The notes: generated by a model from the letters alone, not told the origin. Counted from the first letter of the stretch, positions 1 to 14,343 are shown. The stretch is 32,000 bases of DNA from Candidatus Aenigmatarchaeota archaeon (GCA_015522745.1 WALQ01000028.1:2961-34960), one strand, 5' to 3'. Program-made: numbers and translations.

Positions 1-63
1 GAATATTCCGAGCATGATTATTGTCAGTATGATGCCTACGACTATCATCAGCCCTTCACTCAT
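1..63 (-). CDS. 5' end only of a small TM or pilin-like protein; the rest runs off the window
   Basis: ATG at 63..61 opens MSEGLMIVVGIILTIIMLGIF: a short polar N-terminus ending in Gly, then a hydrophobic stretch, as in a class III signal. It lies directly downstream of the 71..1117 gene on the same strand. Only 21 codons are visible. Confidence 0.3.
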   Translation of the reverse strand, partial: MSEGLMIVVGIILTIIMLGIF

Positions 64-70
64 TCCCTTT

Positions 71-1117
71 TTACCATTTTTCATATCCGAAAGCCCCACT
101 ATCATTTGCGAATGTATCGTATCTCATGATTGTGTAATTGTTTTCTACTATGGGCAATTGTGCCAAAAGGCAATTTGATTGACATGGCAATTGCTCGCAA
201 AATCCGTTTGCATTAGTTATATCAACTATTATGCATGTCCTATCGCCGTTATCATCTTTTTCGCAAGTTGTGTAATTTCCGATGTATTCAATCTTACTAT
301 TATTGATGATGTATTTCTTGTGCACTTCACACGAACATTTTGCCGAGTAAACAGTTACTTCCCCTTTGCATGGGCTTGCCAATGATAATTCCCCATAGTA
401 TTCACCAGTCGCTCCTTGATCGGTATCGAATAGCACGCTCCCGTTGAAATCGCATTTAAGCGGAAACGCGTATATGGCATTTTTCGTTTTCATGCATATC
501 GAATTGTTCATGCAGAACTCGTACTTGTAAATCATTCTGTCTTGGGATTCCGTGGCGTTTTTTATGTAATACTTTACTCGTCCGAACTGTTTCACAGCTT
601 TCCAGTTCGAATCTTGTACATTTGCGACAACCGGATAGAACATCGGGATCGCCGTTCTCACGTTCAATGATTTCAACGTTTCGTTCGCCTCGTGCTCGGA
701 CCTTTCTATGAAATCCTTTATATAACTTTTGTCAAATTCATCATTCGTTGAATTCACGTAGACGAACAGTATGTTCTTTGGGAGCTCACCGTAGTACCCT
801 TCCCACGAGTACCCCGTGCCTGGATGAAATGCCTCGTAGTACACAACGACATCTGGATCTCCTCGCGTCGTTATGTAAGCGCCTTTCAGAAGGTCGTTTG
901 GCATATTCTGGTCTATGTTGAACGTTATCGTCTTTGCACTCGAACCTTCGCAAACGCTGTCTATGGCATCTCTCAACTTGGACGTGTAGTAAATCGCCCG
1001 CCTCGTTGACGAGCGTTGCGAAGCCATTATGGCGTAAAACGGAAGAATCATGAGAATGACTATGCCTATTATGACTATGACTGTGAGCGGTCCGACTGAG
1101 AGGAATCCCCGATTCAT
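71..1117 (-). CDS. Cys-rich secreted or pilin-like surface protein with a class III (prepilin-like) signal peptide, 348 aa
   Basis: The ORF track extends to 1405. However, Met97 (ATG 1117..1115) opens MNRG|FLSVGPLTVIVIIGIVILMILPF: a basic residue, Gly, then about 20 hydrophobic residues. The 288 nt upstream are better explained by two small SD-coupled TM ORFs in another frame. The mature part is Cys-rich with many N-x-S/T sequons. Its C-terminal LPIVENNY..DSGAFGYE is shared with the 2327..3931 product. Confidence 0.6.
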   Translation of the reverse strand: MNRGFLSVGPLTVIVIIGIVILMILPFYAIMASQRSSTRRAIYYTSKLRDAIDSVCEGSSAKTITFNIDQNMPNDLLKGAYITTRGDPDVVVYYEAFHPGTGYSWEGYYGELPKNILFVYVNSTNDEFDKSYIKDFIERSEHEANETLKSLNVRTAIPMFYPVVANVQDSNWKAVKQFGRVKYYIKNATESQDRMIYKYEFCMNNSICMKTKNAIYAFPLKCDFNGSVLFDTDQGATGEYYGELSLASPCKGEVTVYSAKCSCEVHKKYIINNSKIEYIGNYTTCEKDDNGDRTCIIVDITNANGFCEQLPCQSNCLLAQLPIVENNYTIMRYDTFANDSGAFGYEKW

Positions 1118-1248
1118 CAAATACCTGCCTCCGACGTCCAATTTGCTATGAGATGCTTTATAACGGCTGGTGAAACGTTTTTCGCGAGCAGAAAGTATAT
1201 CAGAAGGACGACGACAAAAATTATTATTCCGACTACCAATTTGTTCAT
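1117..1248 (-). CDS. small single-TM protein, 43 aa, below the ORF-track size cut-off
   Basis: Hand translation gives MNKLVVGIIIFVVVLLIYFLLAKNVSPAVIKHLIANWTSEAGI*. It is preceded by GGTGGT-TGA-ATG (SD, 3 nt, start). Its TGA overlaps the ATG of the 71..1117 gene by 1 nt (TGATG), which suggests translational coupling. Confidence 0.35.
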   Translation of the reverse strand: MNKLVVGIIIFVVVLLIYFLLAKNVSPAVIKHLIANWTSEAGI

Positions 1249-1398
1249 TCAACCACCCACGAGCATTTTCAGCGACCCGATGAATATGGACACGACCGAC
1301 GATGATATCGAAGTCAACTTTCCTGTTATGAGCATTATCACGAATGTGAACAGCGCCATAAATATGACCGCAAGCACGACTATCGTTGCAATTTTCAT
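1249..1398 (-). CDS. small hydrophobic (1-2 TM) protein, 49 aa, below the ORF-track size cut-off
   Basis: Hand translation gives MKIATIVVLAVIFMALFTFVIMLITGKLTSISSSVVSIFIGSLKMLVGG*. An AT-rich TATA-like element lies about 24 nt upstream. The stop TGA abuts the next ATG (TGAATG). Confidence 0.35.
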   Translation of the reverse strand: MKIATIVVLAVIFMALFTFVIMLITGKLTSISSSVVSIFIGSLKMLVGG

Positions 1399-1410
1399 AA
1401 TACATATTTC

Positions 1411-1432
1411 GCGTATTAATATAAATAAATTT
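1411..1432. promoter_or_regulatory. AT-rich TATA-like element in a divergent intergenic region
   Basis: GTATTAATATAAATAAATTT lies between the divergent starts at 1398 (-) and 1450 (+). It is about 24 nt from the minus-strand ATG. The plus-strand gene also has GGAGAGGT 9 nt before its ATG, so which strand or strands this element serves is unclear. Confidence 0.3.
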
Positions 1433-1449
1433 GGAGAGGTAATAAAATT

Positions 1450-2316
1450 ATGAGAACGGAATTCGAGATAGTCCTCGCAATACTAATATCATTACTGGTT
1501 CTTTTCATAGTCATTGTGATAACCAAAAATTCGAAGATAAGTGTTATCGGTGGAATAAATAAAAGCGAAAACGAGACGCAGCGCGTAATCAAAATGAGCA
1601 TAAGGAACATGTCCGTTGATGACATTTCAAATCAATACACGAATAAATACCGTTTCGATGTAAATCTTTCGTTCGACAACGATTGGGAGGATAAAACTGT
1701 CGTTCCTGTATTGCGTGTTGGAAAATCATACGCGCTTTGCGACAGAAAAACTTTGAACGTTCCAAAAGGCATTTCCGTGAAAGAGTGTGAATTCACGCTC
1801 TCAACGGGCGAGAAGCTCGTAATTGATTGTGGAATGCCGATAGGAAATTATTTTTCGTGCACAACCCTACTGGAAAAAGGTCAGGTTGTGGACGTTGGTG
1901 GATACTCGGTTCGGTTCGGCGGACTGTTTTTCAAATTTATGTCAAATGATTATCTGGCAAAATTCTTCATTTACGATGGAAACATACCGTACAAGTATTT
2001 TGAATTTTTTGACTCGACTTCAGGAAGCGAGCATAAAACCAATGTCAACGGAGGCTGGGCCAGTGTAACCGTTCTCAAACCGAAGAAATACGAATCTTCG
2101 TGTGTTGAAATAAAGACATTTGGTGAATCCAAGTCAGGATTGATTAAAAACGAGGCGGGAATTTACATATATCCGGCTGGATGCCAATTCTGGAATGGCA
2201 TAACACCCAATGCTCCATCTGATAAAATTGCAGATACCATAGAATATTGCTCCGACACTCCCCTTGGATATTCAGAAGGCAGCTTCTTGGTTGATAAAAA
2301 GTATGTTGGATGCTGA
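1450..2316 (+). CDS. N-terminally membrane-anchored secreted protein of unknown function, 288 aa
   Basis: ORF with SD GGAGAGGT upstream. N-terminus MRTEFEIVLAILISLLVLFIVIVITKNSK (charged residues, then a 20-residue hydrophobic helix). The remainder is soluble, contains Cys, and has N-x-S/T sequons. It is the only plus-strand gene inside the filament locus. Confidence 0.6.
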   Translation: MRTEFEIVLAILISLLVLFIVIVITKNSKISVIGGINKSENETQRVIKMSIRNMSVDDISNQYTNKYRFDVNLSFDNDWEDKTVVPVLRVGKSYALCDRKTLNVPKGISVKECEFTLSTGEKLVIDCGMPIGNYFSCTTLLEKGQVVDVGGYSVRFGGLFFKFMSNDYLAKFFIYDGNIPYKYFEFFDSTSGSEHKTNVNGGWASVTVLKPKKYESSCVEIKTFGESKSGLIKNEAGIYIYPAGCQFWNGITPNAPSDKIADTIEYCSDTPLGYSEGSFLVDKKYVGC

Positions 2317-2326
2317 GTGCAAGGAA

Positions 2327-3931
2327 CTAATGGACCACTTTTAATGGATATTTGATTACTGCTATTTCTATTCCGTTTTCTTTCGATTCGTCCACGAGGT
2401 ACTTTTCACATGGCCCATGAATTGATTTGCAAATTTCTGCATATCCAAATCCAGCTCCGCTTGCAAAAGGATCTGACGATGAATCTATGTAAACGTAAAA
2501 ATCGTTTGATATTATGGGTATGTAAGACGGCGTTGCCGATGGAAGGTATATGTAATCATTCAGCAATGCTTGTGAAATGACTTTGATCTCATATTTCTGA
2601 GGATTTGTTCCCGAACATTTTCCGTCTGAACACGCACACGATATTTCGCTATAACCATGCTCGCCTCCAATGCAATAATATTCTTCTAGCTCACCATTGC
2701 TAGTGCATTCATCTTCTTCAACATGCTTTCCGCTATTGTCTGTGTACGTAGTCGTTCCCTTGTCGAAAACATTTATCTCCGGCTCTCTTGTTATAATGCT
2801 GTCTGTACTGTCAACCTTTTTACATGTATGACTGCTGCAAAATTGTAAGAATTTGCCTCCATAACTGCATAATTTCTCGTTGTAGAGGTAACATTTTTTC
2901 ATTGGGATTTCATCGTATTGAATTACGTACGTGGGAAAATCGTAAATGATTTTGTTCACATCTTCTTTTTGCGATTTCATTTTATCGAGCTCATCCTGGA
3001 ACTTTTGGTCCTTCTCGCTGCCCGTGAGGTCCATAAAGAGTATTTCCAGTGTTCCGTCGGGGCGTTCGATTGAGCGTTCCCACGGATGTCCTGAAGTAGA
3101 TTTTAAATCTACAACAATTATACTATTTCCAGAAGCATCGTTGATCGTATGAATGGTTTGATTGAGCTGAGATAAAACATATTGTGGTTGATTATTTATT
3201 GATGTAAAATTCATTTTTATTCGAGATGTGACACCACTGCTTTGCGTTATGGGTGTTACATCATATTGAAGCTCTTCGAAATTGGACAGACCATCTACTT
3301 GATTATGAGCAATTATTGATGTTTTATAATCCTTCGAATTCTTATCAAATGTTTTGCCTTTTAATATATCAATGAAATATTCCATATTCACATCATAATA
3401 CCCACCATACGGCGTGTAAATCCTTTCTTTTTCTATGTCGCCGGCATCCGAATATCCGACGAAAACTATGTACGAACCGATGATGTATTGTCTCCCTCTG
3501 AGCTCAATATCGTCTATCGGATTGTCAAGGACTATGGGGCAGATGCTGTTTTTCACTATTATTTCGCCGCATTCAGAGAGATTTTTCTCCTCCCCGGGCC
3601 CGATGACGACGTTCGAGCATTTGTCGTTCTGCGGGAGCGTCGTGTTTCCAAATATCTCAAAATAAGGCGTCACGTTGAGCTCACTGTCGCCGACATTCTT
3701 CAGCGTTATGTTGTCTATGTGGAGGTCCATCGTCGGGACATTTGAATCCAAATGGCATTCGTAATAGATATTGTAATTTTCTATCTGGAGTTGATCGGCC
3801 ACCGGATTTTGGTCAAATATGTCGTGCATTTTTTTCCGCGCTATTGTCGATGGTATCTTGACAAACGCCACTATGCCTATGAATATCATGAGAACCATGA
3901 GTATTACGCTTAGCACAAGCTTGAACTCCAT
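2327..3931 (-). CDS. large N-terminally anchored surface protein (putative adhesin or filament-associated), 534 aa
   Basis: The start is preceded by GGTGAT-TGA-ATG. N-terminus MEFKLVLSVILMVLMIFIGIVAFV. It carries one copy (aa 370-439) of the Cys module found twice in the 6807..7472 product (…ECTSNGELEEYYC…CACSDGKC). Its C-terminal IPIISNDFYVYIDSS..ASGAGFGYAE is paralogous to the C-terminus of the 71..1117 product. Confidence 0.7.
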   Translation of the reverse strand: MEFKLVLSVILMVLMIFIGIVAFVKIPSTIARKKMHDIFDQNPVADQLQIENYNIYYECHLDSNVPTMDLHIDNITLKNVGDSELNVTPYFEIFGNTTLPQNDKCSNVVIGPGEEKNLSECGEIIVKNSICPIVLDNPIDDIELRGRQYIIGSYIVFVGYSDAGDIEKERIYTPYGGYYDVNMEYFIDILKGKTFDKNSKDYKTSIIAHNQVDGLSNFEELQYDVTPITQSSGVTSRIKMNFTSINNQPQYVLSQLNQTIHTINDASGNSIIVVDLKSTSGHPWERSIERPDGTLEILFMDLTGSEKDQKFQDELDKMKSQKEDVNKIIYDFPTYVIQYDEIPMKKCYLYNEKLCSYGGKFLQFCSSHTCKKVDSTDSIITREPEINVFDKGTTTYTDNSGKHVEEDECTSNGELEEYYCIGGEHGYSEISCACSDGKCSGTNPQKYEIKVISQALLNDYIYLPSATPSYIPIISNDFYVYIDSSSDPFASGAGFGYAEICKSIHGPCEKYLVDESKENGIEIAVIKYPLKVVH

Positions 3932-3939
3932 TCAATCAC

Positions 3940-4110
3940 CTATGGCATCAACGATGACACTGCCTTTGTCGCCACGTTGGCTATCGCATTCATCATGCTT
4001 GTCGCGAGCTCCTTGACTCCGGCTCCGAAGACCTTCGCGAGCAGTATTAGGACGACGGCTATCACGGCCACCATAATCACCACGACTATCATGTACGTTA
4101 TTCCCTTCAT
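3940..4110 (-). CDS. small pilin-like protein with a class III-type signal, 56 aa, not in the ORF track
   Basis: Hand translation gives MKG|ITYMIVVVIMVAVIAVVLILLAKVFGAGVKELATSMMNAIANVATKAVSSLMP*. It is preceded by GGAGTGAT-TGC-ATG, the local SD spacing. The 60-aa track ORF at 3932..4114 (-) is a different, Arg/Asp-rich frame. Confidence 0.5.
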   Translation of the reverse strand: MKGITYMIVVVIMVAVIAVVLILLAKVFGAGVKELATSMMNAIANVATKAVSSLMP

Positions 4111-4114
4111 GCAA

Positions 4115-4270
4115 TCACTCCACGAAAAATCTCAAATTCAGCCTCGACGTTATATATCTTATTATGTCCTTCCAATATAAAATACCCAAAAGGAGTATCA
4201 TCACAACTACTACGAGTATCACGATTATTATAAGACCCCTTTTTGAATATCCCTCGGATTCGCTTTCCAT
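4115..4270 (-). CDS. small TM protein with a KRG|hydrophobic motif, 51 aa, not in the ORF track
   Basis: Hand translation gives MESESEGYSKRG|LIIIVILVVVVMILLLGILYWKDIIRYITSRLNLRFFVE*. The start lies 5 nt after the stop of the platform gene (TGTGATGTAAATG). Confidence 0.45.
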   Translation of the reverse strand: MESESEGYSKRGLIIIVILVVVVMILLLGILYWKDIIRYITSRLNLRFFVE

Positions 4271-4275
4271 TTACA

Positions 4276-6300
4276 TCACAGGTTGAATTGAGTGCGCCCG
4301 AAAACGAGCCATGATATGAAAAGCACGATTATATATATGATAGTGGAAATTAAAATCGTTGACGCCGTGGCGTCGTAACGCGAGACGTTGTCATCCGCAT
4401 TCTCTATGGCGTTGTAAAACCACACGAGAAGCATGGCGCTTTCAATCATGTAAAGTCCGACGGAAAATTGGAACTGTCCGGGCGTTATATTGACTTTCCC
4501 GAACATTGGAACGCTTCCCCCCATGTTTGAATTGCTCATTAAATCCGCGAGCTTGTTGAGAACTTTTATGACAAGAGTGGACATTGACGTTATCACGGCG
4601 GTTAGCACGGGCGTGAGGACTATCGCTTGGAACTTTACCGAGCTCGTCACCTCGGAAAGCATTTCAACGACTTGATCCTGAACCTCCTTTGTGTACTTGA
4701 GATAAACGGATATCTTCTTCATCGTGCTCGCGAGCGCGCGGACTCCTTTTTTTGATGCCTCCACGATTATCTTCAGCGTTGAGCTTATGAGGTCTGATGG
4801 GAAGAACAGTATGGCCCCGAATTTTGAGTCGTTTATCGCCTGCTCAAACGTCATTCCGCGCATTTTTATGTTCTCAACAATCGTGGAAAACATCTTGTTT
4901 ATCTTCAGCTTCCCTATGTCGTGCAGTGATTCTTCGAGCGAGATTTCGATCGGCTTCCCGCGCTCTATGAAATTCGAAATCTTGTAAAGCGACTCGGGGA
5001 GCTCGTTTTCAATTCTTCGCGTATCTTCGCGTATCTTTATCCTTTGAAACGCAAGGAACTTGTAGTAAATGTAAAAGAACAATGCAGTCCCGAAAACTAT
5101 TAGCACGGACGGCCACAAATCGCTTTTTCCTGAAATCTCCGCGGCTCTCATTGACTTGTACCCTATGTAAACAATTGGAAACGCCAATGACGATGGCACG
5201 AGCGCGTTGATGTAAAATATCTTGTGACCCAATTTCATCTTAAACTTTCCGTTTGGCGGAACATTTGGATTTTTCGAAATGTCAGCGGGGGCGAAAGCTA
5301 TCGGCCTTCTGTCTATGACGTTCGTGACGACAAACAAGAGTGTTATCGGGAGTATTATATTATAAGTTATGAACATTGCCGACGGCTTGAAATAATTTGA
5401 AAGGAATATGATCATTATCGGAACGAGAACCATGCCCATTATTGGCAGGAGTATTCCGAGCGCGTAAATGGACGTTATCGGCATCCTCATCTTGAGGTTG
5501 AAATCCTTTGCCTCGTCGCGGGCCCCTTCCATTATGTTCGAAATGGCGTTGTCTATGACTTCGAGCCGTTTCTTCGTTGGGAGCTCTATGCTCGAGAGGA
5601 GTATCTGCATGGTTTCAACTATCTTTTTGTCGTCTTTCCAGTACTTGAGGAAGTTGTTTATAGCGTCCTTCATCGTCTTGAACCGACCAACTTCTACGTC
5701 CCATATCATCTTCCTGAGCGTGTACGCAAGCGGTTCCGGGCTGTTGTCCGCGGCAAAAACTATCGAGCCCTCGATGTTTGGGTAGTTTCTCAAGTAAATG
5801 GACATGTACACGAACATTCTGACGATCTGCGATTTGAGCTTGACGCGGTAAATTTTTTCAAGATGAATGGGATAGTAGTACATGTAAATTGAGAATATGA
5901 GAAGCGTTAGTATGAGGACGAATGCATTTCCGACGGAAAGCCCGAATCCGTAAAACAACTTCATTATCATCCCGAGTATTATGAAAAATCCAAACAGAAG
6001 CCCGCTCAACACAACGAATGACGTCGTCCCCTCTGGCGTTGTTTTCAGACCCGTGATGTCTATTGCCCCTTGGAGTGATTTTCTCGTCTTCTCGTCTGGC
6101 TCTATGGTCAGAATGGATTTCGATATGTTGCACGCCTTTTCATAGAGGGTTTTTGGAATCGACTGTATTTTTTCCTCTTCTTTGTAAAGGTTGTAAGCGC
6201 CGGAATTTATTCCAAAATTCCTCTTTTCGGGAAGGAGGATGCTCTGCTCTCTCTCGTCCTTGACTTCCACGAAGTATTTTATGATGTCGCTAAGAGCCAT
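4276..6300 (-). CDS. type IV filament platform membrane protein (TadC/FlaJ/PilC-like, T2SSF-type)
   Basis: 674-aa polytopic membrane protein. It has two cytoplasmic helical segments (…EPLAYTLRKMIWDVEVGRFKTMKDAINNF… and …ELPESLYKISNFIERGKPIEISLEESL…), each followed by TM clusters. This is the duplicated T2SSF architecture. It is co-oriented with and close to the secretion ATPase. Confidence 0.75.
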   Translation of the reverse strand: MALSDIIKYFVEVKDEREQSILLPEKRNFGINSGAYNLYKEEEKIQSIPKTLYEKACNISKSILTIEPDEKTRKSLQGAIDITGLKTTPEGTTSFVVLSGLLFGFFIILGMIMKLFYGFGLSVGNAFVLILTLLIFSIYMYYYPIHLEKIYRVKLKSQIVRMFVYMSIYLRNYPNIEGSIVFAADNSPEPLAYTLRKMIWDVEVGRFKTMKDAINNFLKYWKDDKKIVETMQILLSSIELPTKKRLEVIDNAISNIMEGARDEAKDFNLKMRMPITSIYALGILLPIMGMVLVPIMIIFLSNYFKPSAMFITYNIILPITLLFVVTNVIDRRPIAFAPADISKNPNVPPNGKFKMKLGHKIFYINALVPSSLAFPIVYIGYKSMRAAEISGKSDLWPSVLIVFGTALFFYIYYKFLAFQRIKIREDTRRIENELPESLYKISNFIERGKPIEISLEESLHDIGKLKINKMFSTIVENIKMRGMTFEQAINDSKFGAILFFPSDLISSTLKIIVEASKKGVRALASTMKKISVYLKYTKEVQDQVVEMLSEVTSSVKFQAIVLTPVLTAVITSMSTLVIKVLNKLADLMSNSNMGGSVPMFGKVNITPGQFQFSVGLYMIESAMLLVWFYNAIENADDNVSRYDATASTILISTIIYIIVLFISWLVFGRTQFNL

Positions 6301-6318
6301 AATAATTATTTGTCTCAG

Positions 6319-6337
6319 AAATTATAAATATAAAAAT
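6319..6337 (-). promoter_or_regulatory. TATA box for the platform/small-ORF/adhesin transcription unit
   Basis: The minus strand reads ACAATTTTTATATTTATAATTTC. Its centre is about 27 nt upstream of the ATG at 6300, and no SD lies between them. This is consistent with a leaderless archaeal transcript. Confidence 0.35.
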
Positions 6338-6355
6338 TGTAAAAAGAGAAGTGGA

Positions 6356-6775
6356 TCAATTGGAATACGAACATCCGCATTTTTCCGCGCATTTCTTTTC
6401 TATATATTTTTCACATTCAGATCCTTTTTTGCATTTATCGCTTCCATAAATATAATAGTTTCCATCTGAGTCTTTTCCTTCTATGTTTAATCTATATACG
6501 CAATAGTCGAAAAGTGATGCTGACCCACTTTTTTCCGAATTTCCAACATCACCTTCGGTTATTCCATTAAGATATATTAATTTTGTGCTATCTGGGTTGC
6601 ATCCTCGTTCTGTTAATTGAGTGCAAGCTTGAGAATACGCCTTTGTGATTTCCTGCGATTTTGAAAATCCGCTCGCGCCACTCGTGAACATTCCTATCAA
6701 AACTATCAGAACGAGCACTGCTATGGACAAAATGACTATCGTGCTTATTGGAAGTGAAACACCTTTTTTCGACAT
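6356..6775 (-). CDS. archaeal type IV pilin-like protein, 139 aa
   Basis: MSKKG|VSLPISTIVILSIAVLVLIVLIGMF is a textbook class III signal: basic residues, Gly, then a hydrophobic helix. GGAGGG SD lies 5 nt upstream. The C-terminal globular part has 8 Cys. Confidence 0.7.
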   Translation of the reverse strand: MSKKGVSLPISTIVILSIAVLVLIVLIGMFTSGASGFSKSQEITKAYSQACTQLTERGCNPDSTKLIYLNGITEGDVGNSEKSGSASLFDYCVYRLNIEGKDSDGNYYIYGSDKCKKGSECEKYIEKKCAEKCGCSYSN

Positions 6776-6806
6776 TTTTCATCCCTCCTGAATATATAAT
6801 AATATC

Positions 6807-7472
6807 TTATTCTCGGCCATTTATATAATTATCACTCGGCATCACGCACGCTCCGTCAGCGCATTTGTACGTACATCTTATCTCCGTAGATGCACACGAG
6901 CCGTCGCAAAAGTACTCAATAAGGGTGCGGTTGTTCAAGCATCTGTCGATGTATTTCGTTCCATTGAAAAAGCAAATTCCGCGCGACTCCGGGCGAACGC
7001 CACCGTCCGTGTCCGTGCACAGTGAATATGAGCAATGACCATCAACGCAACCGTTTTTGCATTCGATCATTTTCTCTTTCACTTGGCCATTATTACAGTA
7101 AAACTCTTTCAACGTCGTGCTGTTTGTGCACGTGTCCGAGAACGACTTTATTCCATTTTCAATGAGCTCCGCGTGCCCGGGAATCAGCGGGTTGACTCCG
7201 TTGTCCGTGTCCACACATTTTGATGCGATGAAATTCCCTTTGACCTCCGCACCTATGTACATGAGTATGATGAGAAGCGCAAGGAGAAGTGCGAGCCAAA
7301 TGATCCTTCTCGTGCGTTCAATCTCGGATCGGCGGACATTTTTGAATTTTCGAGCTTTCTCTTCGAATTTCGGGCCTACGTCGTATACCTTTTGCTTTGG
7401 ACTTCTCGACTTGCGCGTTACTCTTATCTTTTTCGCATGTTTTGAGCGTTTTTTCGACTTTGTCCTTTTCAT
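6807..7472 (-). CDS. single-pass membrane protein with a very basic cytoplasmic tail and two extracellular Cys-rich modules, 221 aa
   Basis: GGTGAG-TGA-ATG start. The first ~57 aa are Lys/Arg-rich (MKRTKSKKRSKHAKKIRVTRKSRSPKQK…). TM helix IIWLALLLALLIILMYI. Then a tandem duplication: C-[VT]-D-T-D-x-G-V-x-P … C-x-N-x-T-L-x-E-[FY]-[FY]-C … C-x-D-G-x-C. Confidence 0.7.
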   Translation of the reverse strand: MKRTKSKKRSKHAKKIRVTRKSRSPKQKVYDVGPKFEEKARKFKNVRRSEIERTRRIIWLALLLALLIILMYIGAEVKGNFIASKCVDTDNGVNPLIPGHAELIENGIKSFSDTCTNSTTLKEFYCNNGQVKEKMIECKNGCVDGHCSYSLCTDTDGGVRPESRGICFFNGTKYIDRCLNNRTLIEYFCDGSCASTEIRCTYKCADGACVMPSDNYINGRE

Positions 7473-7476
7473 TCAC

Positions 7477-8175
7477 TCACCACGGTATCTTTCCCAACAT
7501 AGCCGGAAGCACGAACGTCTCGAGGAACGCCGCGAACATGAGGAACGCGACGCCTATCGTGTACACGCTTGACGCGTCGAGCGCTATCTTCCCGAAGTCC
7601 CGCCCGAACGCGCGCGAGCCTATGACAGCCGATGCGAGCATTCCACCGGAAAGTGCGCCCAAAAAGTACGCGAATATTTCAACGGACGTGTGCGGCACGT
7701 ACAGAACGGCGACTTCTATGTTGCTTGATAGCAAAGATGCAAAAAGCTTCCCCGCCATTGCAGCGTTGAGCGCGAGTATGAAAGCCGCCCCGGTTCCATA
7801 TATGAGGGACATCGCAAAGCACACGAACATGACCTTGAGGTTGTTCATGAGCACGGAGCCGAACGCGGAGTACGGATTGTAAGCGTTTCCAACGACCGTG
7901 AGCTCCGACAGCGATATGTACTTGCTCGCTACCCCGAAGACGATGGCCATTCCTATGAAAGAGTATAAGTAGATCTTTATGAGCTCGTTCTTGTGGACGC
8001 GCCTTCTCGACTTGAGCGAATTGTATATGTAATGCGACAGTGGCATTGCGGAAAAGAATATCATGGCGAGAGATGAATGGAAAAGTATGTGACCTATGTA
8101 AATTCCAATGACTGTGTAAGCGACTGAAATCAGAAGCGTTGACCAATCCGACTTCATTAAGTCGTCCAATATCAT
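7477..8175 (-). CDS. SpoIIM/DUF95-like polytopic membrane protein
   Basis: 232 aa, about 6 TM helices. The motifs …MNNLKVMFVCFAMSLIYGTGAAFILALNAAMAG… and …VPHTSVEIFAYFLGALSGG… resemble the stage II sporulation protein M family pattern (NN.kv…G…l..NG…; PHG..E…a). The family assignment is from memory of that pattern, not from a search. Confidence 0.55.
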   Translation of the reverse strand: MILDDLMKSDWSTLLISVAYTVIGIYIGHILFHSSLAMIFFSAMPLSHYIYNSLKSRRRVHKNELIKIYLYSFIGMAIVFGVASKYISLSELTVVGNAYNPYSAFGSVLMNNLKVMFVCFAMSLIYGTGAAFILALNAAMAGKLFASLLSSNIEVAVLYVPHTSVEIFAYFLGALSGGMLASAVIGSRAFGRDFGKIALDASSVYTIGVAFLMFAAFLETFVLPAMLGKIPW

Positions 8176-8205
8176 AAATTAATTTGTCGTGATTGAATAA
8201 AAAGG

Positions 8206-10437
8206 TTATTTCAAATCATCAAACCAATTCTTCCATCGGCGGAAAATCTCATCGCTGTCAAGAGTCCCGAGCTCCTCCTTGACCTCGTCGGATATTATGT
8301 GGAACATTGAATTGGATTTCACAACGTACGGAGCTTCCAAAAGGTGCTTTTTGCTCTCCGGAACGTTCGCTATGTACTCAAGTATCTTCCCGCGGAGGAC
8401 GATGTTGTTCCAAACGAGGTCCCAGTTTCCCTTCCACTCGCGGACGCGCTCGGCAATGTCGTTGAGTATAACGCTTTCACCCGTGAGCAACGTGTCCGTC
8501 GGCTTGAGCTGGTCTTCCTTTGCCGAGTACTGCATGAGATTAATGAACCCGCCCTCTTTCACAGGGTCATCTGTCCAATGCTTTCTGACTTCCGTGATTT
8601 CGACGACGCGTCTGAAACTGTGGAGTCCGTCCGCGGATTTCAACCTGTTCGCCACAACGACTATGTCCGTCGCCTTGAAAGACGTCTTGGGCACGCCGAG
8701 ATCGTTGACAACACGGTCAAACACGCCGTACGCGCTGTCCCCGTGAATCGTTCCCGCGACGACGTTGGCAAGAGCGCCTATCCTCATTGCCTCGTAGAGG
8801 GCGAGCGCCTCTTTGCTTCTCACTTCACCGACTATGAGGCAGGAATCTCCAAGTCGGAGTGCGGTTCTCAGCGCTTCTTCCGCAGGGAGCTCCGTCTCAA
8901 CCTTCGTTATCACGGAGCGCGACTTCAAACGTTGTACGTTGTAACCAATCTTCCTAAGTGCTTCCATTGGGAGCTCGAGTGTGTCTTCCGTCGTGATTAT
9001 CCTGTACCTCGGCATTATCTGGACGAGCATTGAACCGAGCAGTGACGTCTTTCCAGCGCTTCGCGTTCCAGCGACGAGTATCGTTCGCGCGCCGTCTATT
9101 ATGAACCACAAAAGGCCGGCTCCGAGTGGATTGAGATAGCGGTTCCTTATAAAGAGTGGGAACGTCCACGGCTTTTCCCTGTGACGTCGGAAAGCGAATC
9201 CGAGTCCCTTCGGAGATAACGTTCTCGTGATTGCACATATCCTCGCCGAGCCGCCAGGAAGGGTGACTTCTGTGTCTAGCACGGGGTTCGCTTCATCGAG
9301 AGGGCGGCCGGACTGCAACCTGAATCTCGTCGCCCACAATTCGCCGTCCTCCTTGCTCGGATAGATGTTGGTTTCGCAATCCTCGTACTTAGCGTGGAAC
9401 AGGAATATTGGGCTCTCGCCGAGCGGTGCGTTTATCGAAATGTCCTGAACGTTCGGATCTGACATGAGAACTTCAATTATGCCGAGTCCTGCCGTGTAAC
9501 GCGTCAGTATGGACGTAAGCTTGTTGATATCGTCCTCGTTGAGATGATAATTTCTTTGCTTTGCAAGGTCGCGTATGAGGTCCTTCCCGATGTTGTAGAG
9601 GTTGTCCCTGATTTTTTCCGGGTCGACCATCTCCGTCTCCATGGGTTTGTGCTCCATCATGTAGCGCCGCGCCGTGTCGAGAAGTATGTAATGGTCCTCG
9701 GAAAGCTTGAACTCCGGCGGAATGAGATGGTACAGGTAGCGCGTCGAGCCCTTTATTTTGTATATTTCGACCTCGCCCTCTGGAATTTTGTAATTCTCGA
9801 CTATCTCCGCGTTCTTCGGAGGAAGCGAGAGATATCTTGTGTACATGAAGTTTGGCCTTATGACGGGGTGGAATATCGAGCGGTAGAACGAGCGGTCGCT
9901 TATCTCCGTCACGTGTCCGCCAGCCATTTTTATTATTGACAGGTTTTCGAGTATTGTCTTCACGGGAACGAGCGCATTGTTGATGTAGCGCTCCGTGCAG
10001 CGCTTGCAGATGTCCGGAGCTCTCTTTTCCATTATCCTCGCGAGGCGTATTTCGCGCAGCGTCGAGTTGTACGCCTTTATCGGGTCGTATTTTATTGCGG
10101 AGACGATTGATTGCAATGTTGCATAACGCGAAGGAGCGCATTTGGTGCACTGTGGTATGGTAACGTTCTTCGTTGAGACGATTCCCATGTCGTTTATCTG
10201 CTTTATCGCAGACGCGATCTCTTTCAAAAGCTTTACGTTGTTGTAATCGTAGTCGTACTCGCGCTCGGCAGCGAGAACGACTCTCATCGCCTCGGGGCGC
10301 TCTATGAGCTTCGACACGGTTCTTGCCATGCACACGTCAAAATTCTCAACGCTTGAACCGTATATGCATCCTAAACAGTTCACGCGTATTGTCCTAGATT
10401 CGTCATCGTACGTATAATCGCATACCATTTCTACCAC
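8206..10437 (-). CDS. type II/IV secretion-family ATPase (FlaI/PilB/VirB11-like) with a long N-terminal extension
   Basis: Walker A GTRSAGKTS, TTEDTLEL, Walker B region SCLIVGEVR, His box AGTIHG. About 330 aa of N-terminal extension contain C-x14-C-x2-C-x11-C and two CxxC pairs. The track start at 10437 is GTG; the ATG at 10428 (MVCDYTY…) is an equally good start. Confidence 0.9.
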   Translation of the reverse strand: MVEMVCDYTYDDESRTIRVNCLGCIYGSSVENFDVCMARTVSKLIERPEAMRVVLAAEREYDYDYNNVKLLKEIASAIKQINDMGIVSTKNVTIPQCTKCAPSRYATLQSIVSAIKYDPIKAYNSTLREIRLARIMEKRAPDICKRCTERYINNALVPVKTILENLSIIKMAGGHVTEISDRSFYRSIFHPVIRPNFMYTRYLSLPPKNAEIVENYKIPEGEVEIYKIKGSTRYLYHLIPPEFKLSEDHYILLDTARRYMMEHKPMETEMVDPEKIRDNLYNIGKDLIRDLAKQRNYHLNEDDINKLTSILTRYTAGLGIIEVLMSDPNVQDISINAPLGESPIFLFHAKYEDCETNIYPSKEDGELWATRFRLQSGRPLDEANPVLDTEVTLPGGSARICAITRTLSPKGLGFAFRRHREKPWTFPLFIRNRYLNPLGAGLLWFIIDGARTILVAGTRSAGKTSLLGSMLVQIMPRYRIITTEDTLELPMEALRKIGYNVQRLKSRSVITKVETELPAEEALRTALRLGDSCLIVGEVRSKEALALYEAMRIGALANVVAGTIHGDSAYGVFDRVVNDLGVPKTSFKATDIVVVANRLKSADGLHSFRRVVEITEVRKHWTDDPVKEGGFINLMQYSAKEDQLKPTDTLLTGESVILNDIAERVREWKGNWDLVWNNIVLRGKILEYIANVPESKKHLLEAPYVVKSNSMFHIISDEVKEELGTLDSDEIFRRWKNWFDDLK

Positions 10438-10442
10438 AGAAA

Positions 10443-11231
10443 TTAAGATTTTTCTTCAGCCTTTTTGACAGAATCGCTCCACGGAACATCATCGCCGTAA
10501 ATGTGATGAAGCGTCTTCTTTTCAAGGTCCTCATGGCGCTTCTTGAGCGTTTCAACTATGTTGGACAGGTTCTGTATGTTGTCAACGAGCGTCGGAAGCA
10601 ATTGCTTGAACGATTTCTCGAGCGCGCCGACGCGAACTTCCAAATCCTCGACTTTCGTGTCAAGTTCGCTGAATTTCTCCTCCACTTCTTCCTTGCTCAC
10701 TTCTTCCTTCTTTTCCGTCTTTATGTTGGACAGGAGCTTTTTCGCGTCTTCCATCTCCCGCTCGACTTCCTTCATCCGCGCGTCTATCTTTTCCCACTTC
10801 TCGTTAACCATGCTTTGAATGATGTCCTCGACTATGTTGTTTATGTCCACAGTGTCCTCCACAGACTGCGAGAAATCCTGTGGGGGCTCTTGAATGTTTG
10901 ATTGTTGGGGTGATAAATTTTCAAAATTTTCTCCCTGCGGAAGAGAGGGCATTTGACCTTGTTGAGAGCCTTGATTGAATTGAGGATTAAACTGTTGATT
11001 TAATTGAGTGTTCTGTTGTGTACTTTCATTTGGTTGTTTTGGCGGTGATTTTCTTTTCACTGAAGATTTCATTGCCATAAGCATAGCCTTTTCTATTTCG
11101 TCGTAAGTATAACCCTCGGATTTTAAATGGCGTATTATATCCTTGTCTGGCATCCCACTTTGGCTCATCTTCACAACTTCATCTGTTGGAAGTGGGCGCT
11201 CTTCCTTTTTCTTTTTTGTCAAGAATAGCAT
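10443..11231 (-). CDS. hypothetical protein: small N-terminal helical domain, Q/N/P-rich linker, acidic coiled coil, 262 aa
   Basis: GGTGAT-TAA-ATG start coupled to the upstream gene. Low-complexity stretch QPNESTQQNTQLNQQFNPQFNQGSQQGQMPSLPQ. The C-terminal half is heptad-like and Glu/Lys-rich. Only 5 nt separate it from the ATPase gene. Confidence 0.65.
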   Translation of the reverse strand: MLFLTKKKKEERPLPTDEVVKMSQSGMPDKDIIRHLKSEGYTYDEIEKAMLMAMKSSVKRKSPPKQPNESTQQNTQLNQQFNPQFNQGSQQGQMPSLPQGENFENLSPQQSNIQEPPQDFSQSVEDTVDINNIVEDIIQSMVNEKWEKIDARMKEVEREMEDAKKLLSNIKTEKKEEVSKEEVEEKFSELDTKVEDLEVRVGALEKSFKQLLPTLVDNIQNLSNIVETLKKRHEDLEKKTLHHIYGDDVPWSDSVKKAEEKS

Positions 11232-11615
11232 TTAATCACCACCTTCGTATATCTTGTCCTTGATCTCCTCAAACTCCTTCCTCGTGACGTAGTTGTTGTT
11301 CAACGGATTGAGGATTTCAACCATTTTTTCTATTTCCTTTAAATCGGTTTTGCGCGCAGTTTTTGAGAGCTTGCCATCGATTTTTCTTATTGCATCCTCT
11401 ATTCTGTTTAGGCGGTCCTTTATCGATTCGACGTCGGACGACATGGACGCGATTTTTTTCTTTACATCCGAGAATTTTTTGTTCGACGTGTCTTCGAGAG
11501 TGGATATCTTCGATTCGTTCATATCCATTCGCTGTTCCAGAACGCGGAGCCGCCTGCTCTCTTCGTTGGCGCGCCTGACGAGCTCCTGAATTATGACATT
11601 CATTTCATTTACCAT
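11232..11615 (-). CDS. hypothetical coiled-coil protein, 127 aa
   Basis: Clean ORF. A TATA-like GTTTAAATATTTC lies about 30 nt upstream of the ATG at 11615. The sequence is dominated by heptad-like charged repeats (…LRVLEQRMDMNESKISTLED…IKDRLNRIEDAIRKIDGKL…). Confidence 0.65.
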   Translation of the reverse strand: MVNEMNVIIQELVRRANEESRRLRVLEQRMDMNESKISTLEDTSNKKFSDVKKKIASMSSDVESIKDRLNRIEDAIRKIDGKLSKTARKTDLKEIEKMVEILNPLNNNYVTRKEFEEIKDKIYEGGD

Positions 11616-11698: not shown

Positions 11699-12274
11699 TC
11701 ACTTTTTATTATCTCCCGTAGGATTGCTTTGTTTGCTCGTCACCATGAAGTAAAGCGCGATTGCTATTACGCCGAGGAACAAAATTATCCCCCATGTCAT
11801 CGGACTCAATGATATCGTCTGAGACGGTATTCGTATGTTCGCTGCTATGAGGAATATGTAAATCGCGACGCCGACGAAGAAGAGATTGACGAGGAACTTT
11901 GCAATTCCCTTGATGTTAAGCCCCATAAACTTATCCGGAAGCATTGTATCAAATAGCTTGTCCATTATCGTTCTGTCTTTTTCCGGAGCTCCGAGTATTA
12001 TCGCAAGTATCATGAGAAAGACGAGAACGCCTGCAGAAACCATTGTGTAGTCGCCCATCATATTCGTGAAGAACGACTCTATGTTCGTCCCGAATGGCGT
12101 GTACACCACGAGATACGACGCAACGACTATTCCGAGTATTGGCGGAACAGCCTTTGCCTTTTCCTTGAATATCTGGCCCGAGAAATAATACGTCAGCGCG
12201 AAAGCGAAAATCCACGGGAGTATGGTGTCGTAAAATCCGAGATTCCTAAGTGAAAGTATTATTTGCTCCATCAT
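11699..12274 (-). CDS. polytopic membrane protein, paralog family member A, 191 aa
   Basis: N-terminus MMEQIILSLRNLGFYDTILPWIFAFALTYY aligns with MSVLQIMIGNLRQLGFFDFILPWVFAFAITWG of the next gene. About 5 TM helices. SD AAGGAG upstream. Confidence 0.65.
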   Translation of the reverse strand: MMEQIILSLRNLGFYDTILPWIFAFALTYYFSGQIFKEKAKAVPPILGIVVASYLVVYTPFGTNIESFFTNMMGDYTMVSAGVLVFLMILAIILGAPEKDRTIMDKLFDTMLPDKFMGLNIKGIAKFLVNLFFVGVAIYIFLIAANIRIPSQTISLSPMTWGIILFLGVIAIALYFMVTSKQSNPTGDNKK

Positions 12275-12279
12275 TCATA

Positions 12280-12792
12280 TCAGCTCCTTGTCACGAACCA
12301 CACGACGATTCCAATCACAGCCAGCGCGAACACGACCGCGACCGCCGTCTGATTGAATGAAACCGCGTACATTGGGATGCTGTATCCCATGGCGAACATG
12401 AACAGGTAGATTGCGAGAATTATGATCAGAAGATAAAAGAAGAACTTGAGCCACTTGCCTATGCCCTCTCCTTTGATTGGTTCGAATATGTCGCTCGCCT
12501 TTACGCCTATGAGGCCGAGCAGAAGCACGCCAATGAGTATGCCGCCCATGACCATTGATGACTCCCCAAAGAGCTTCGTGAAGAACATTCCGATGTAGCC
12601 GTACGGCGTGTAGTTTGTCACGAAGAACGCGACCACAAGTGAAATTATGCCGGCGACGGCATCTTGATTGTTGAAGAGACCCGCCATCTTTATGGAGCCC
12701 CAAGTTATGGCAAATGCGAATACCCACGGGAGTATGAAGTCGAAGAATCCAAGCTGGCGAAGATTTCCAATCATTATTTGAAGCACGGACAT
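12280..12792 (-). CDS. polytopic membrane protein, paralog family member B, 170 aa
   Basis: AGGAGGT SD 8 nt upstream. Clear similarity to member A along the first ~90 aa (…YTP[FY]G…FFT…G[DE]…MV…G[VI]L…). Confidence 0.65.
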   Translation of the reverse strand: MSVLQIMIGNLRQLGFFDFILPWVFAFAITWGSIKMAGLFNNQDAVAGIISLVVAFFVTNYTPYGYIGMFFTKLFGESSMVMGGILIGVLLLGLIGVKASDIFEPIKGEGIGKWLKFFFYLLIIILAIYLFMFAMGYSIPMYAVSFNQTAVAVVFALAVIGIVVWFVTRS

Positions 12793-13881: not shown

Positions 13882-14343
13882 TTATTGACTAACATTACCC
13901 CCACCGAACATATTCATTTTTGCGGCAAGAAGGAAAAGAACTGCAACAAGCGTGAATCCCACTATGAATGTTATCGTCGTTGAGTTCGGAATGTGTATGG
14001 AATTTCTTATTGTTGGAGATGCGAGACCTATAAAAATGAGAAAGACTATCGCTCCGACGACTCCGTAATCCGCTTTGCTGCCGCTCCCAATCGAGTTTAT
14101 AAACTTCCATATGAAACCGACTATGAAAAGTATGACGAACACGATGGTCGCCACGGGCATATACTTCCACAACATATCCACAACGCTTTCATTGACGATT
14201 GACATTATGGCGATTGTAATTGCTATTATCGCGTTGACCGCCTTGTTTTTGAAGACACCACTGAGCTCAATTGAGCCGTACACAACGGCAAATGAGAATA
14301 CGAAAGGGACAATATAATACCAAATATCCGATGGAACATACAT
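13882..14343 (-). CDS. polytopic membrane protein, distant member C of the same paralog family, 153 aa
   Basis: MYVPSDIWYYIVPFVFSFAVVYGSIELSGVFKNKAVNAIIAI parallels …ILPW[IV]FAFA[LI]T…G…F.N…AV.GII of members A and B. About 4 TM helices. Confidence 0.6.
   Translation of the reverse strand: MYVPSDIWYYIVPFVFSFAVVYGSIELSGVFKNKAVNAIIAITIAIMSIVNESVVDMLWKYMPVATIVFVILFIVGFIWKFINSIGSGSKADYGVVGAIVFLIFIGLASPTIRNSIHIPNSTTITFIVGFTLVAVLFLLAAKMNMFGGGNVSQ

Follow-up and report, generated by a model that had tools for sequence, protein, structure and literature searches.

The 32,000-nucleotide stretch analyzed here (the window), from a Candidatus Aenigmatarchaeota archaeon (GCA_015522745.1, WALQ01000028.1:2961-34960; contig C28 below), carries at positions 1 to 11,615 a locus whose genes, judged from homology and context, likely specify a type IV filament machine of the archaeal pilus-like type, characteristic of Aenigmatarchaeota. 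The source is a 94%-complete metagenome-assembled genome (MAG) of 533 kb in 72 contigs. An earlier reading made from the bare sequence, referred to here as the sequence-only reading, had proposed a pilus-like system and not an archaellum, and this proposal held: the locus combines an assembly ATPase, a platform protein and conserved class-III-like substrates, archaellin is absent, and the ATPase reaches only 141 of the 550 bits set for an archaellar FlaI.

Both core components named in that reading, an ATPase and a TadC/FlaJ-type platform, were borne out by profile matches. For the ATPase (N; genes are lettered as in Table 1), the best NCBIfam match was the FlaI model NF058587 (4.2e-41, 141.3 bits vs. 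an equivalog cut-off of 550), and the TadA and BasE models matched as well. Its best solved relative was afGspE (PDB 2OAP, 3.7e-33), followed by FlaI (1.5e-20) and CpaF (8RKD, 2.6e-19), and all catalytic boxes are intact (Walker A at residues 457–464, Asp box at 482–489, Walker B at 534–540, and His box at 562–566). The platform protein (J) by itself matched only weakly, to T2SSF (0.0021, residues 165–294) and GspF (0.0012, residues 441–645), but 15 of 29 J orthologs matched T2SSF, with a best value of 4e-8, and the C-terminal half of J aligned with the canonical TadC encoded on contig C68 of the same genome (hhalign, 83%, E 8e-6). Its hydropathy profile indicates at least eight transmembrane segments (TM). 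A profile search of the PDB with the platform alignment returned spurious apolipoprotein matches only.

The substrates were recognized by their N-termini. Eight proteins of the locus (A, B, C, D, E, H, I, and K) start with [KR]G followed by a hydrophobic helix; the five N-termini quoted in the sequence-only reading are all present among the open reading frames (ORFs), and three more such proteins lie beyond the window edge. In the nearest relative, GCA_053990035.1 (JBMXCT010000006.1), the [KR]G motif is retained in eight of eight orthologs at 51–78% overall identity. A crude, permissive scan for such signals across the genome (669 ORFs) gave 35 matches, six of which fall in this locus, with H and I masked by overlapping spurious ORFs, and five more in a second pilus locus on contigs C67 and C68; the hypergeometric p for enrichment in the locus over the genome ranged from 7e-5 to 2e-9. 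The secreted set is also rich in cysteine (3.3% vs. 0.93% genome-wide), with contents near zero in the cytoplasmic and membrane proteins of the locus. Each predicted extracellular protein carries between 4 and 15 Cys, and the counts are even except in G (15).

ATPase relatives at 42–66% identity were found in 68 loci, nearly all in MAGs labeled Aenigmatarchaeota and a few in MAGs labeled Micrarchaeales/Anstonellales, Woese-, Pace-, or Nanohaloarchaeota; these labels place the source among the DPANN archaea, in the phylum Aenigmatarchaeota. Using tblastn over these 68 loci, we recovered N in all of them, J and P in 49 each, in both cases adjoining the ATPase, and O in 43. D/E and C were confined to the closest clade, and K, L, M, G, and F were essentially not found. 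The conserved core is thus the ATPase, the platform, P, and O, in contrast to the fast-diverging pilin-like genes. What recurs in place of the individual genes is their arrangement: the ATPase-platform pair of the relatives is trailed, and often interrupted, by 5–12 genes with KG/ or KA/ signals (a slash marks the candidate cleavage site), including tandem genes for proteins of 100–130 amino acids (aa) of the form KG/VAIPYIIALILG…GYW. Small KG/ pilin genes fill the same ATPase-platform interval as K does here, TM ORFs of 43–70 aa recur directly 3′ of the platform gene in the manner of I, and pairs of ~45-aa ORFs resembling X1 and X2 precede the D/E gene in two related loci (L012 and L017).

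The N-terminal extension of the ATPase is a feature of nearly the whole phylum. The afGspE alignment covers residues 211–643 of N, with ~210 residues preceding the aligned core, and an AlphaFold2 (AF2) model of residues 1–300, built from a 45-sequence alignment, was confident (predicted local distance difference test, pLDDT, of 86.7). A profile of the extension matched 198 of the 201 Aenigmatarchaeota genomes sampled, covering 118 of 119 genera and 91 of 92 high-quality genomes, with matches in only 3 of 41 genomes of Micrarchaeota; searched against 1.84 billion representatives, it matched 466 clusters. Cysteines 21, 36, 97, and 147 of the extension are retained in 61–86% of 48 orthologs, and their CxxC partners are not retained. 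One of just three genomes in the phylum that gave no extension match, G043 (90% complete), belongs to the same genus as the source, and its missing match is probably an assembly gap. Many Aenigmatarchaeota orthologs of the ATPase contain one or two inteins (Intein_splicing plus LAGLIDADG) in the core near the Asp box (e.g., L078:9572-13312 and L073:3493-8739), giving open frames of 1250–2007 aa in many genomes; the ATPase of the window has no intein.

On the minus strand the genes run P-O-N-M-L-K-J-I-H-G-(F, plus strand)-X1-X2-E-D, and then C-B-A outside the window (Table 1), with intergenic gaps of 0–55 bases and some overlaps. The 2960 contig bases to the left of the window carry the rest of D, followed by C, B, and A. 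Because the locus reaches the contig end inside A, it is at least 14.6 kb long and is cut by the assembly rather than by biology. The description of the locus as compact was accordingly overstated, and the locus is longer still in the nearest relative, where further giant Cys-rich genes follow. Two conserved mini-genes, X1 and X2, had been overlooked.

Table 1. Genes of the pilus-like locus and the A24 peptidase genes of the same genome. Positions are window coordinates unless a contig is named; identity is to the ortholog in the nearest relative.
Gene	Position	Strand	Product	N-terminus	Identity (%)	Features
P	11232..11615	-	127-aa cytoplasmic coiled-coil protein			no Cys, no TM; generic coiled-coil matches only
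O	10443..11231	-	262-aa cytoplasmic coiled-coil protein			alignment of 28 orthologs
N	8206..10437	-	743-aa PilB/FlaI-family assembly ATPase			T2SSE 1.9e-17; ~200-aa N-terminal extension
M	7477..8175	-	232-aa SpoIIM-like 6-TM membrane protein			PF01944 3.1e-13
L	6807..7472	-	221-aa protein	not class III		14 Cys
K	6356..6775	-	139-aa pilin-like protein	MSKKG/VSLPISTIVIL…	58	8 Cys
J	4276..6300	-	674-aa polytopic platform, TadC/FlaJ type		75	two T2SSF-like repeats; profile matches
I	4115..4270	-	51-aa single-TM mini-protein	…SKRG/LIIIVIL…	71	ortholog at equivalent position
H	3940..4110	-	56-aa single-TM mini-protein	MKG/ITYMIVVV…	71	ortholog at equivalent position
G	2327..3931	-	534-aa N-anchored Cys-rich protein	MEFKLVLSVIL…, no [KR]G	36	15 Cys; one N-terminal TM
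F	1450..2316	+	288-aa N-anchored Cys-rich protein		45	8 Cys
X1	1249..1398	-	49-aa single-TM mini-protein		51	ortholog a called gene, at equivalent position
X2	1117..1248	-	43-aa single-TM mini-protein		65	stop overlaps E start
E	71..1117	-	348-aa pilin-like protein, D/E family	MNRG/FLSVGPL…	52.5	alignment and AF2 model
D	1..84	-	start of ~400-aa E paralog	MKNGKKGMSEGLMIVVG…	57	remainder left of window, C28:2-3065
C	left of window, after D		153-aa protein	MKG/M	78
B	left of window, after C		275-aa protein	MLKG/A	51
A	left of window, after B		protein of at least 180 aa	DKG/Q	60	interrupted by contig end
A24 peptidase	C45:11723-12481	-	252-aa protein			PF01478 2.2e-12 (above Pfam cut-off); IWDLFTTDIPD and GGGD motifs
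A24 paralog	C50:6883-7998	+	371-aa protein			25.8 bits vs. cut-off 26.5; SPGD motif

The nearest relative shares the gene order K-J-I-H-G-F(reversed)-X1-X2-E-D-C-B-A. K has an ortholog there at the equivalent position with an identical signal; only three K homologs were found among 5.8e9 proteins. D and E are paralogs (4e-13) and form a family of their own. A homolog search with E found seven proteins, and the 15-sequence alignment of the D/E family conserves the KG signal, ten Cys, a WxWP at the C-terminus, and the motifs GDPxxVLYYExFP and KYxxCGxNSLCLKT. Modeled with AF2 (pLDDT 76, predicted TM-score 0.77), E shows a predicted pilin “lollipop” layout, with an N-terminal helix spanning residues 10–56 (47 residues) followed by a globular alpha/beta head. 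The partial gene that the sequence-only reading had placed at 1..63 is real and corresponds to D, with its start most likely at window position 84, from which D reads MKNGKKGMSEG…; it has three candidate starts, each ATG, and candidate cleavage sites at KKG/M and SEG/L, and the D protein of the nearest relative begins MKDKGYSEG….

The two large N-terminally anchored Cys-rich proteins described earlier, G and F, both exist, F being encoded on the plus strand. They are the fastest-diverging genes of the locus relative to the nearest relative, at 36% (G) and 45% (F) identity vs. 75% for the platform. G evolves fastest of all, and its ortholog measures only 352 aa; that of F lies at the equivalent position and likewise on the opposite strand. 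In F and G, as in X1 and X2, no Gly cleavage site accompanies the N-terminal anchor. Scans of domain and profile libraries gave no family match for G, and the view that several components lack a recognizable family agrees with the library, homolog, and structure searches.

The operon of the nearest relative extends beyond A (L088:10224-18804). Its additional products are a Peptidase_M23 protein with a class III signal (480 aa, with 20 Cys), a protein of 699 aa that contains 48 Cys, a pilin of 117 aa (MKG/NVT…), and a giant Cys-rich protein whose length is 1546 aa or more. In the source genome the only match to these extra genes was to the M23 catalytic domain (57–59% identity), in an M23 gene of its own on contig C62 with a multi-TM N-terminus. 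The class-III N-terminus of the relative’s M23 protein is unmatched here, and an M23 peptidase was rejected as part of the source locus; the remaining related loci yielded no M23 gene.

Two genes between the ATPase and K, M and L, appear from their distribution to be local insertions outside the core. M is absent from all 68 related loci, and in genomes of the same order SpoIIM homologs lie on other contigs or tens of kilobases away from the ATPase; on these grounds, SpoIIM-like M was rejected as a component of the system. The in-locus M has diverged (no homolog in the order exceeds 41% identity to it, and there is no synteny elsewhere) and is probably a lineage-specific insertion rather than a conserved component. 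A second SpoIIM-like gene occurs in the genome at C18:3131-3592. L consists of a basic cytoplasmic tail, one TM (residues 57–75), and, outside the cell, two modules rich in Cys. It has a module in common with G (phmmer 5e-5) and is not conserved among the 68 related loci.

P and O complete the conserved core. O begins with a small helical domain that is conserved, continues through a disordered linker, and closes with a coiled coil whose terminal GLEKAFK..LP motif is likewise conserved; searches of the PDB and Pfam with the O alignment returned generic coiled coils only. O also resembles DUF7310 weakly (1.2e-4, below cut-off); as a tie between these genes and a haloarchaeal coiled-coil protein, DUF7310 was rejected, the match being sub-threshold and unspecific. 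The P-O pair is co-directional with the ATPase here and divergently transcribed in most relatives (among them L013, L016, L017, and L029), so the pair has been inverted locally. Upstream of P lie three paralogous multi-TM proteins, Q, R, and T, at 11699-12274, 12280-12792, and 13882-14343 (Q-R 2e-22; R-T 4e-8). This membrane family, which also occurs upstream of the ATPase in 11–23 related loci, is perhaps loosely associated with the pilus locus.

The headline of the sequence-only reading was the lack of a prepilin peptidase in cis. No A24-family peptidase is indeed encoded in the locus, but this carries little weight, given that a search of the whole genome found two A24 paralogs in trans, on contigs C45 and C50. 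The C45 gene adjoins a GT2-like glycosyltransferase gene and the C50 gene adjoins a gene for a 1201-aa secreted protein. PibD, the broad-range peptidase of Sulfolobus and Haloferax, is likewise encoded outside the pilus operons. Only the EppA form of the peptidase is often found within its own pilus locus (PMC4858521, section 15). The genome also encodes a second, canonical type IV pilus system (C20:2684-4351, C68:3-1720, C68:1747-2181, and C67:14-4193), with a PilB3_C-domain ATPase on C20, a split TadB/TadC platform (two T2SSF genes) on C68, and at least five pilins on C67 and C68 whose [KR][GA]/Q…E[FY] signals are unlike those of the window locus. The two A24 peptidases may each serve one of the two systems.

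Reasoning from homology at every step, we infer that the machine would work as follows. The eight precursors K, E, D, C, B, A, H, and I would insert in the membrane through the N-terminal helix that follows the basic [KR]G leader, and the leader would be removed by an A24 aspartic prepilin peptidase encoded in trans, for which the C45 gene and possibly its C50 paralog are candidates. A hexamer of the ATPase N, docked on the platform J, would use ATP hydrolysis to lift subunits from the membrane, and these would assemble, packed along their long N-terminal helices, as a filament on the cell surface or as a short pseudopilus. The small protein K would be the likeliest bulk subunit. The disulfide-rich and fast-diverging D/E family, together with C, B, A, G, and F, would likely supply minor, tip, or base subunits, which would make contact outside the cell, plausibly with a host; a role of the large Cys-rich proteins as tip adhesins, or in the attachment of an episymbiont, is plausible, with indirect support only from the fast divergence of G and F. 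The P/O pair and the ATPase extension would be conserved accessories, probably scaffolding or regulating the motor.

Several observations weigh against this assignment or parts of it. A strict FlaFind-type regular expression was passed by only three of the eight class-III-like proteins (D, at EG/L, E, and I), so the signals depart from the canonical pattern at positions +2 to +4. The head of the E model had no fold match in the PDB (Foldseek, best E 0.055, TM-score about 0.1); with no solved pilin fold to match, the pilin-like nature is argued from the N-terminus and gene context only. Nor did the model of the ATPase extension match any fold in the PDB, regulator folds included (Foldseek, best E 0.43). 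The mini-proteins, at 43–56 aa, are too short to hold a pilin head, and since X1, X2, F, and G lack the Gly site, these four may be membrane components and not filament subunits. K is the best candidate for the major subunit, a guess made from its size and position. The host-attachment role, finally, is a hypothesis held across the field (PMC6142677, section 15).

A short pseudopilus or bindosome-like apparatus, one that displays or secretes by mounting large class-III proteins or expelling cargo in place of a long adhesive fiber, would use much the same parts, and we regard it as unlikely. It would account for the presence of five different large class-III proteins (153 to about 400 aa) beside a single small K-type gene, and the class-III M23 protein and giant Cys-rich proteins added to the operon of the nearest relative suggest enzyme or effector display more than a plain fiber. 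The bindosome ATPase model BasE (NF053672), however, gave N just 75.6 bits vs. a cut-off of 1000, no substrate-binding-protein domain was found in any protein of the locus, and other Aenigmatarchaeota loci contain tandem small pilin genes, which are typical of fiber-forming systems. A DNA-uptake or DNA-exchange pilus of the Ups or Com kind, serving this purpose instead of host attachment, is considerably less probable. Type IV filaments serve this purpose in other organisms, and an organism with a reduced 533-kb genome might need scavenged nucleic acids; yet neither the locus nor its flanks hold a gene for DNA binding, for a nuclease, or for a ComEC/Ced-type translocase, and the ComGA model reached 40.8 bits on N vs. 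a cut-off of 300.

That the locus is a degenerate archaellum (motility) locus is hardly credible. The FlaI model is the best NCBIfam match of the ATPase but falls far below its equivalog cut-off, and among solved structures the non-archaellar afGspE outscores FlaI. A search of the whole 94%-complete genome for archaellin (PF01917) returned nothing at E ≤ 1, and the locus contains no FlaB/F/G-type gene, as the sequence-only reading had stated; FlaH was not searched with a specific model. An extension of the pilus-like assignment would make the phylum-wide machine a specialized host-contact organelle and not a plain adhesive pilus: the mini-proteins (H, I, X1, and X2) and/or K would form a thin fiber, the D/E family, C, B, A, G, and F a disulfide-locked and fast-evolving tip complex of novel fold, enzymes carried by that complex in some lineages, such as a class-III-signal M23 peptidase, would breach or remodel the host envelope, and the ATPase extension and P/O would couple assembly to host sensing. 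We consider this detailed scheme a long shot.

The pilus-like machine fits the published picture, in which divergent type IV pilus (T4P) loci of DPANN archaea, Cys-rich ATPase extensions, coiled-coil partners, and unrecognizable pilins have already been described. A close description is that of ATPase subclade 4F, noted in “nanoarchaea” without identifiable pilins and characterized by ATPases whose variable N-terminal domain is rich in Cys and by a coiled-coil protein that accompanies them (Makarova, Koonin & Albers, 2016, PMC4858521, section 12). The present locus resembles it, in described features, by its VirB11/PilB-type ATPase with an extra Cys-containing N-terminal domain, its adjacent TadC-like platform, and possibly its intracellular coiled-coil proteins. 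It differs in that its pilins are not of the PilA/arCOG02981 type and in that the Cys of the extension are just 61–86% conserved. The coiled-coil protein of subclade 4F is arCOG07564; here the coiled-coil genes conserved beside the ATPase are P and O, with sub-threshold similarity to DUF7310 only. The “dark-matter” T4P loci of DPANN archaea, whose signal-peptide proteins unlike known pilins were taken as diverse pilins (Makarova, Wolf & Koonin, 2019, PMC6393860, section 6, Fig. 2A), share with this locus an ATPase and TadC followed by signal-bearing proteins without similarity to known pilins; added here are the prevalence across the phylum, a defined D/E family, the mini-proteins, and the peptidase locations. 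Jarett et al. (2018, PMC6142677, section 15) proposed that the T4P of Nanoarchaeota serves to attach them to their hosts, and a 2025 preprint inferred conserved pilus scaffold genes with variable pilins in Aenigmatarchaeota ancestors (10.1101/2025.08.05.668663, section 17).

The closest solved ATPase, afGspE of Archaeoglobus fulgidus, lacks the first ~210 residues of N. Archaeal adhesion pili (Sulfolobus Aap and Ups; Haloferax PilA with PilB3-PilC3) likewise have an ATPase, a platform, class III pilins, and a peptidase encoded elsewhere, but the pilins of the present locus have heads rich in Cys and without sequence relationship to theirs, and the PilB3_C domain occurs in the other ATPase of the genome (C20) and not in N. 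The archaellum (FlaI/FlaJ/FlaB) has homologous ATPase and platform families; the FlaI score of N is far too low for it, and no archaellin, FlaF, or FlaG was found. With the bacterial Tad/Flp pilus the locus shares a related ATPase (CpaF) and 43–56-aa single-helix proteins of Flp-like size; in contrast to that system, the mini-proteins lack the G/xxxxEY Flp motif, and there is no secretin, CpaB, or TadZ. The Sulfolobus bindosome differs through the missed BasE cut-off and the lack of substrate-binding-protein domains in the proteins of the locus.

The general picture is unchanged by these results: DPANN archaea with divergent T4P loci, presumed to serve host attachment, are already in the literature. 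The additions are modest, namely the prevalence of the system across the phylum, the definition of the D/E family, four mini-proteins, and an uncharacterized ATPase extension. We know of no cultured Aenigmatarchaeota. K, the D/E family, with its confidently modeled head without a solved relative, and the ATPase extension offer targets for imaging of enrichment cultures, proteomics, and structural work. For the phylum as a whole, the findings point to one T4P-type machine, marked by an uncharacterized ~200-aa ATPase domain and a coiled-coil pair, in essentially every sampled genome, with exposed subunits that turn over rapidly and the peptidases it needs encoded in trans.

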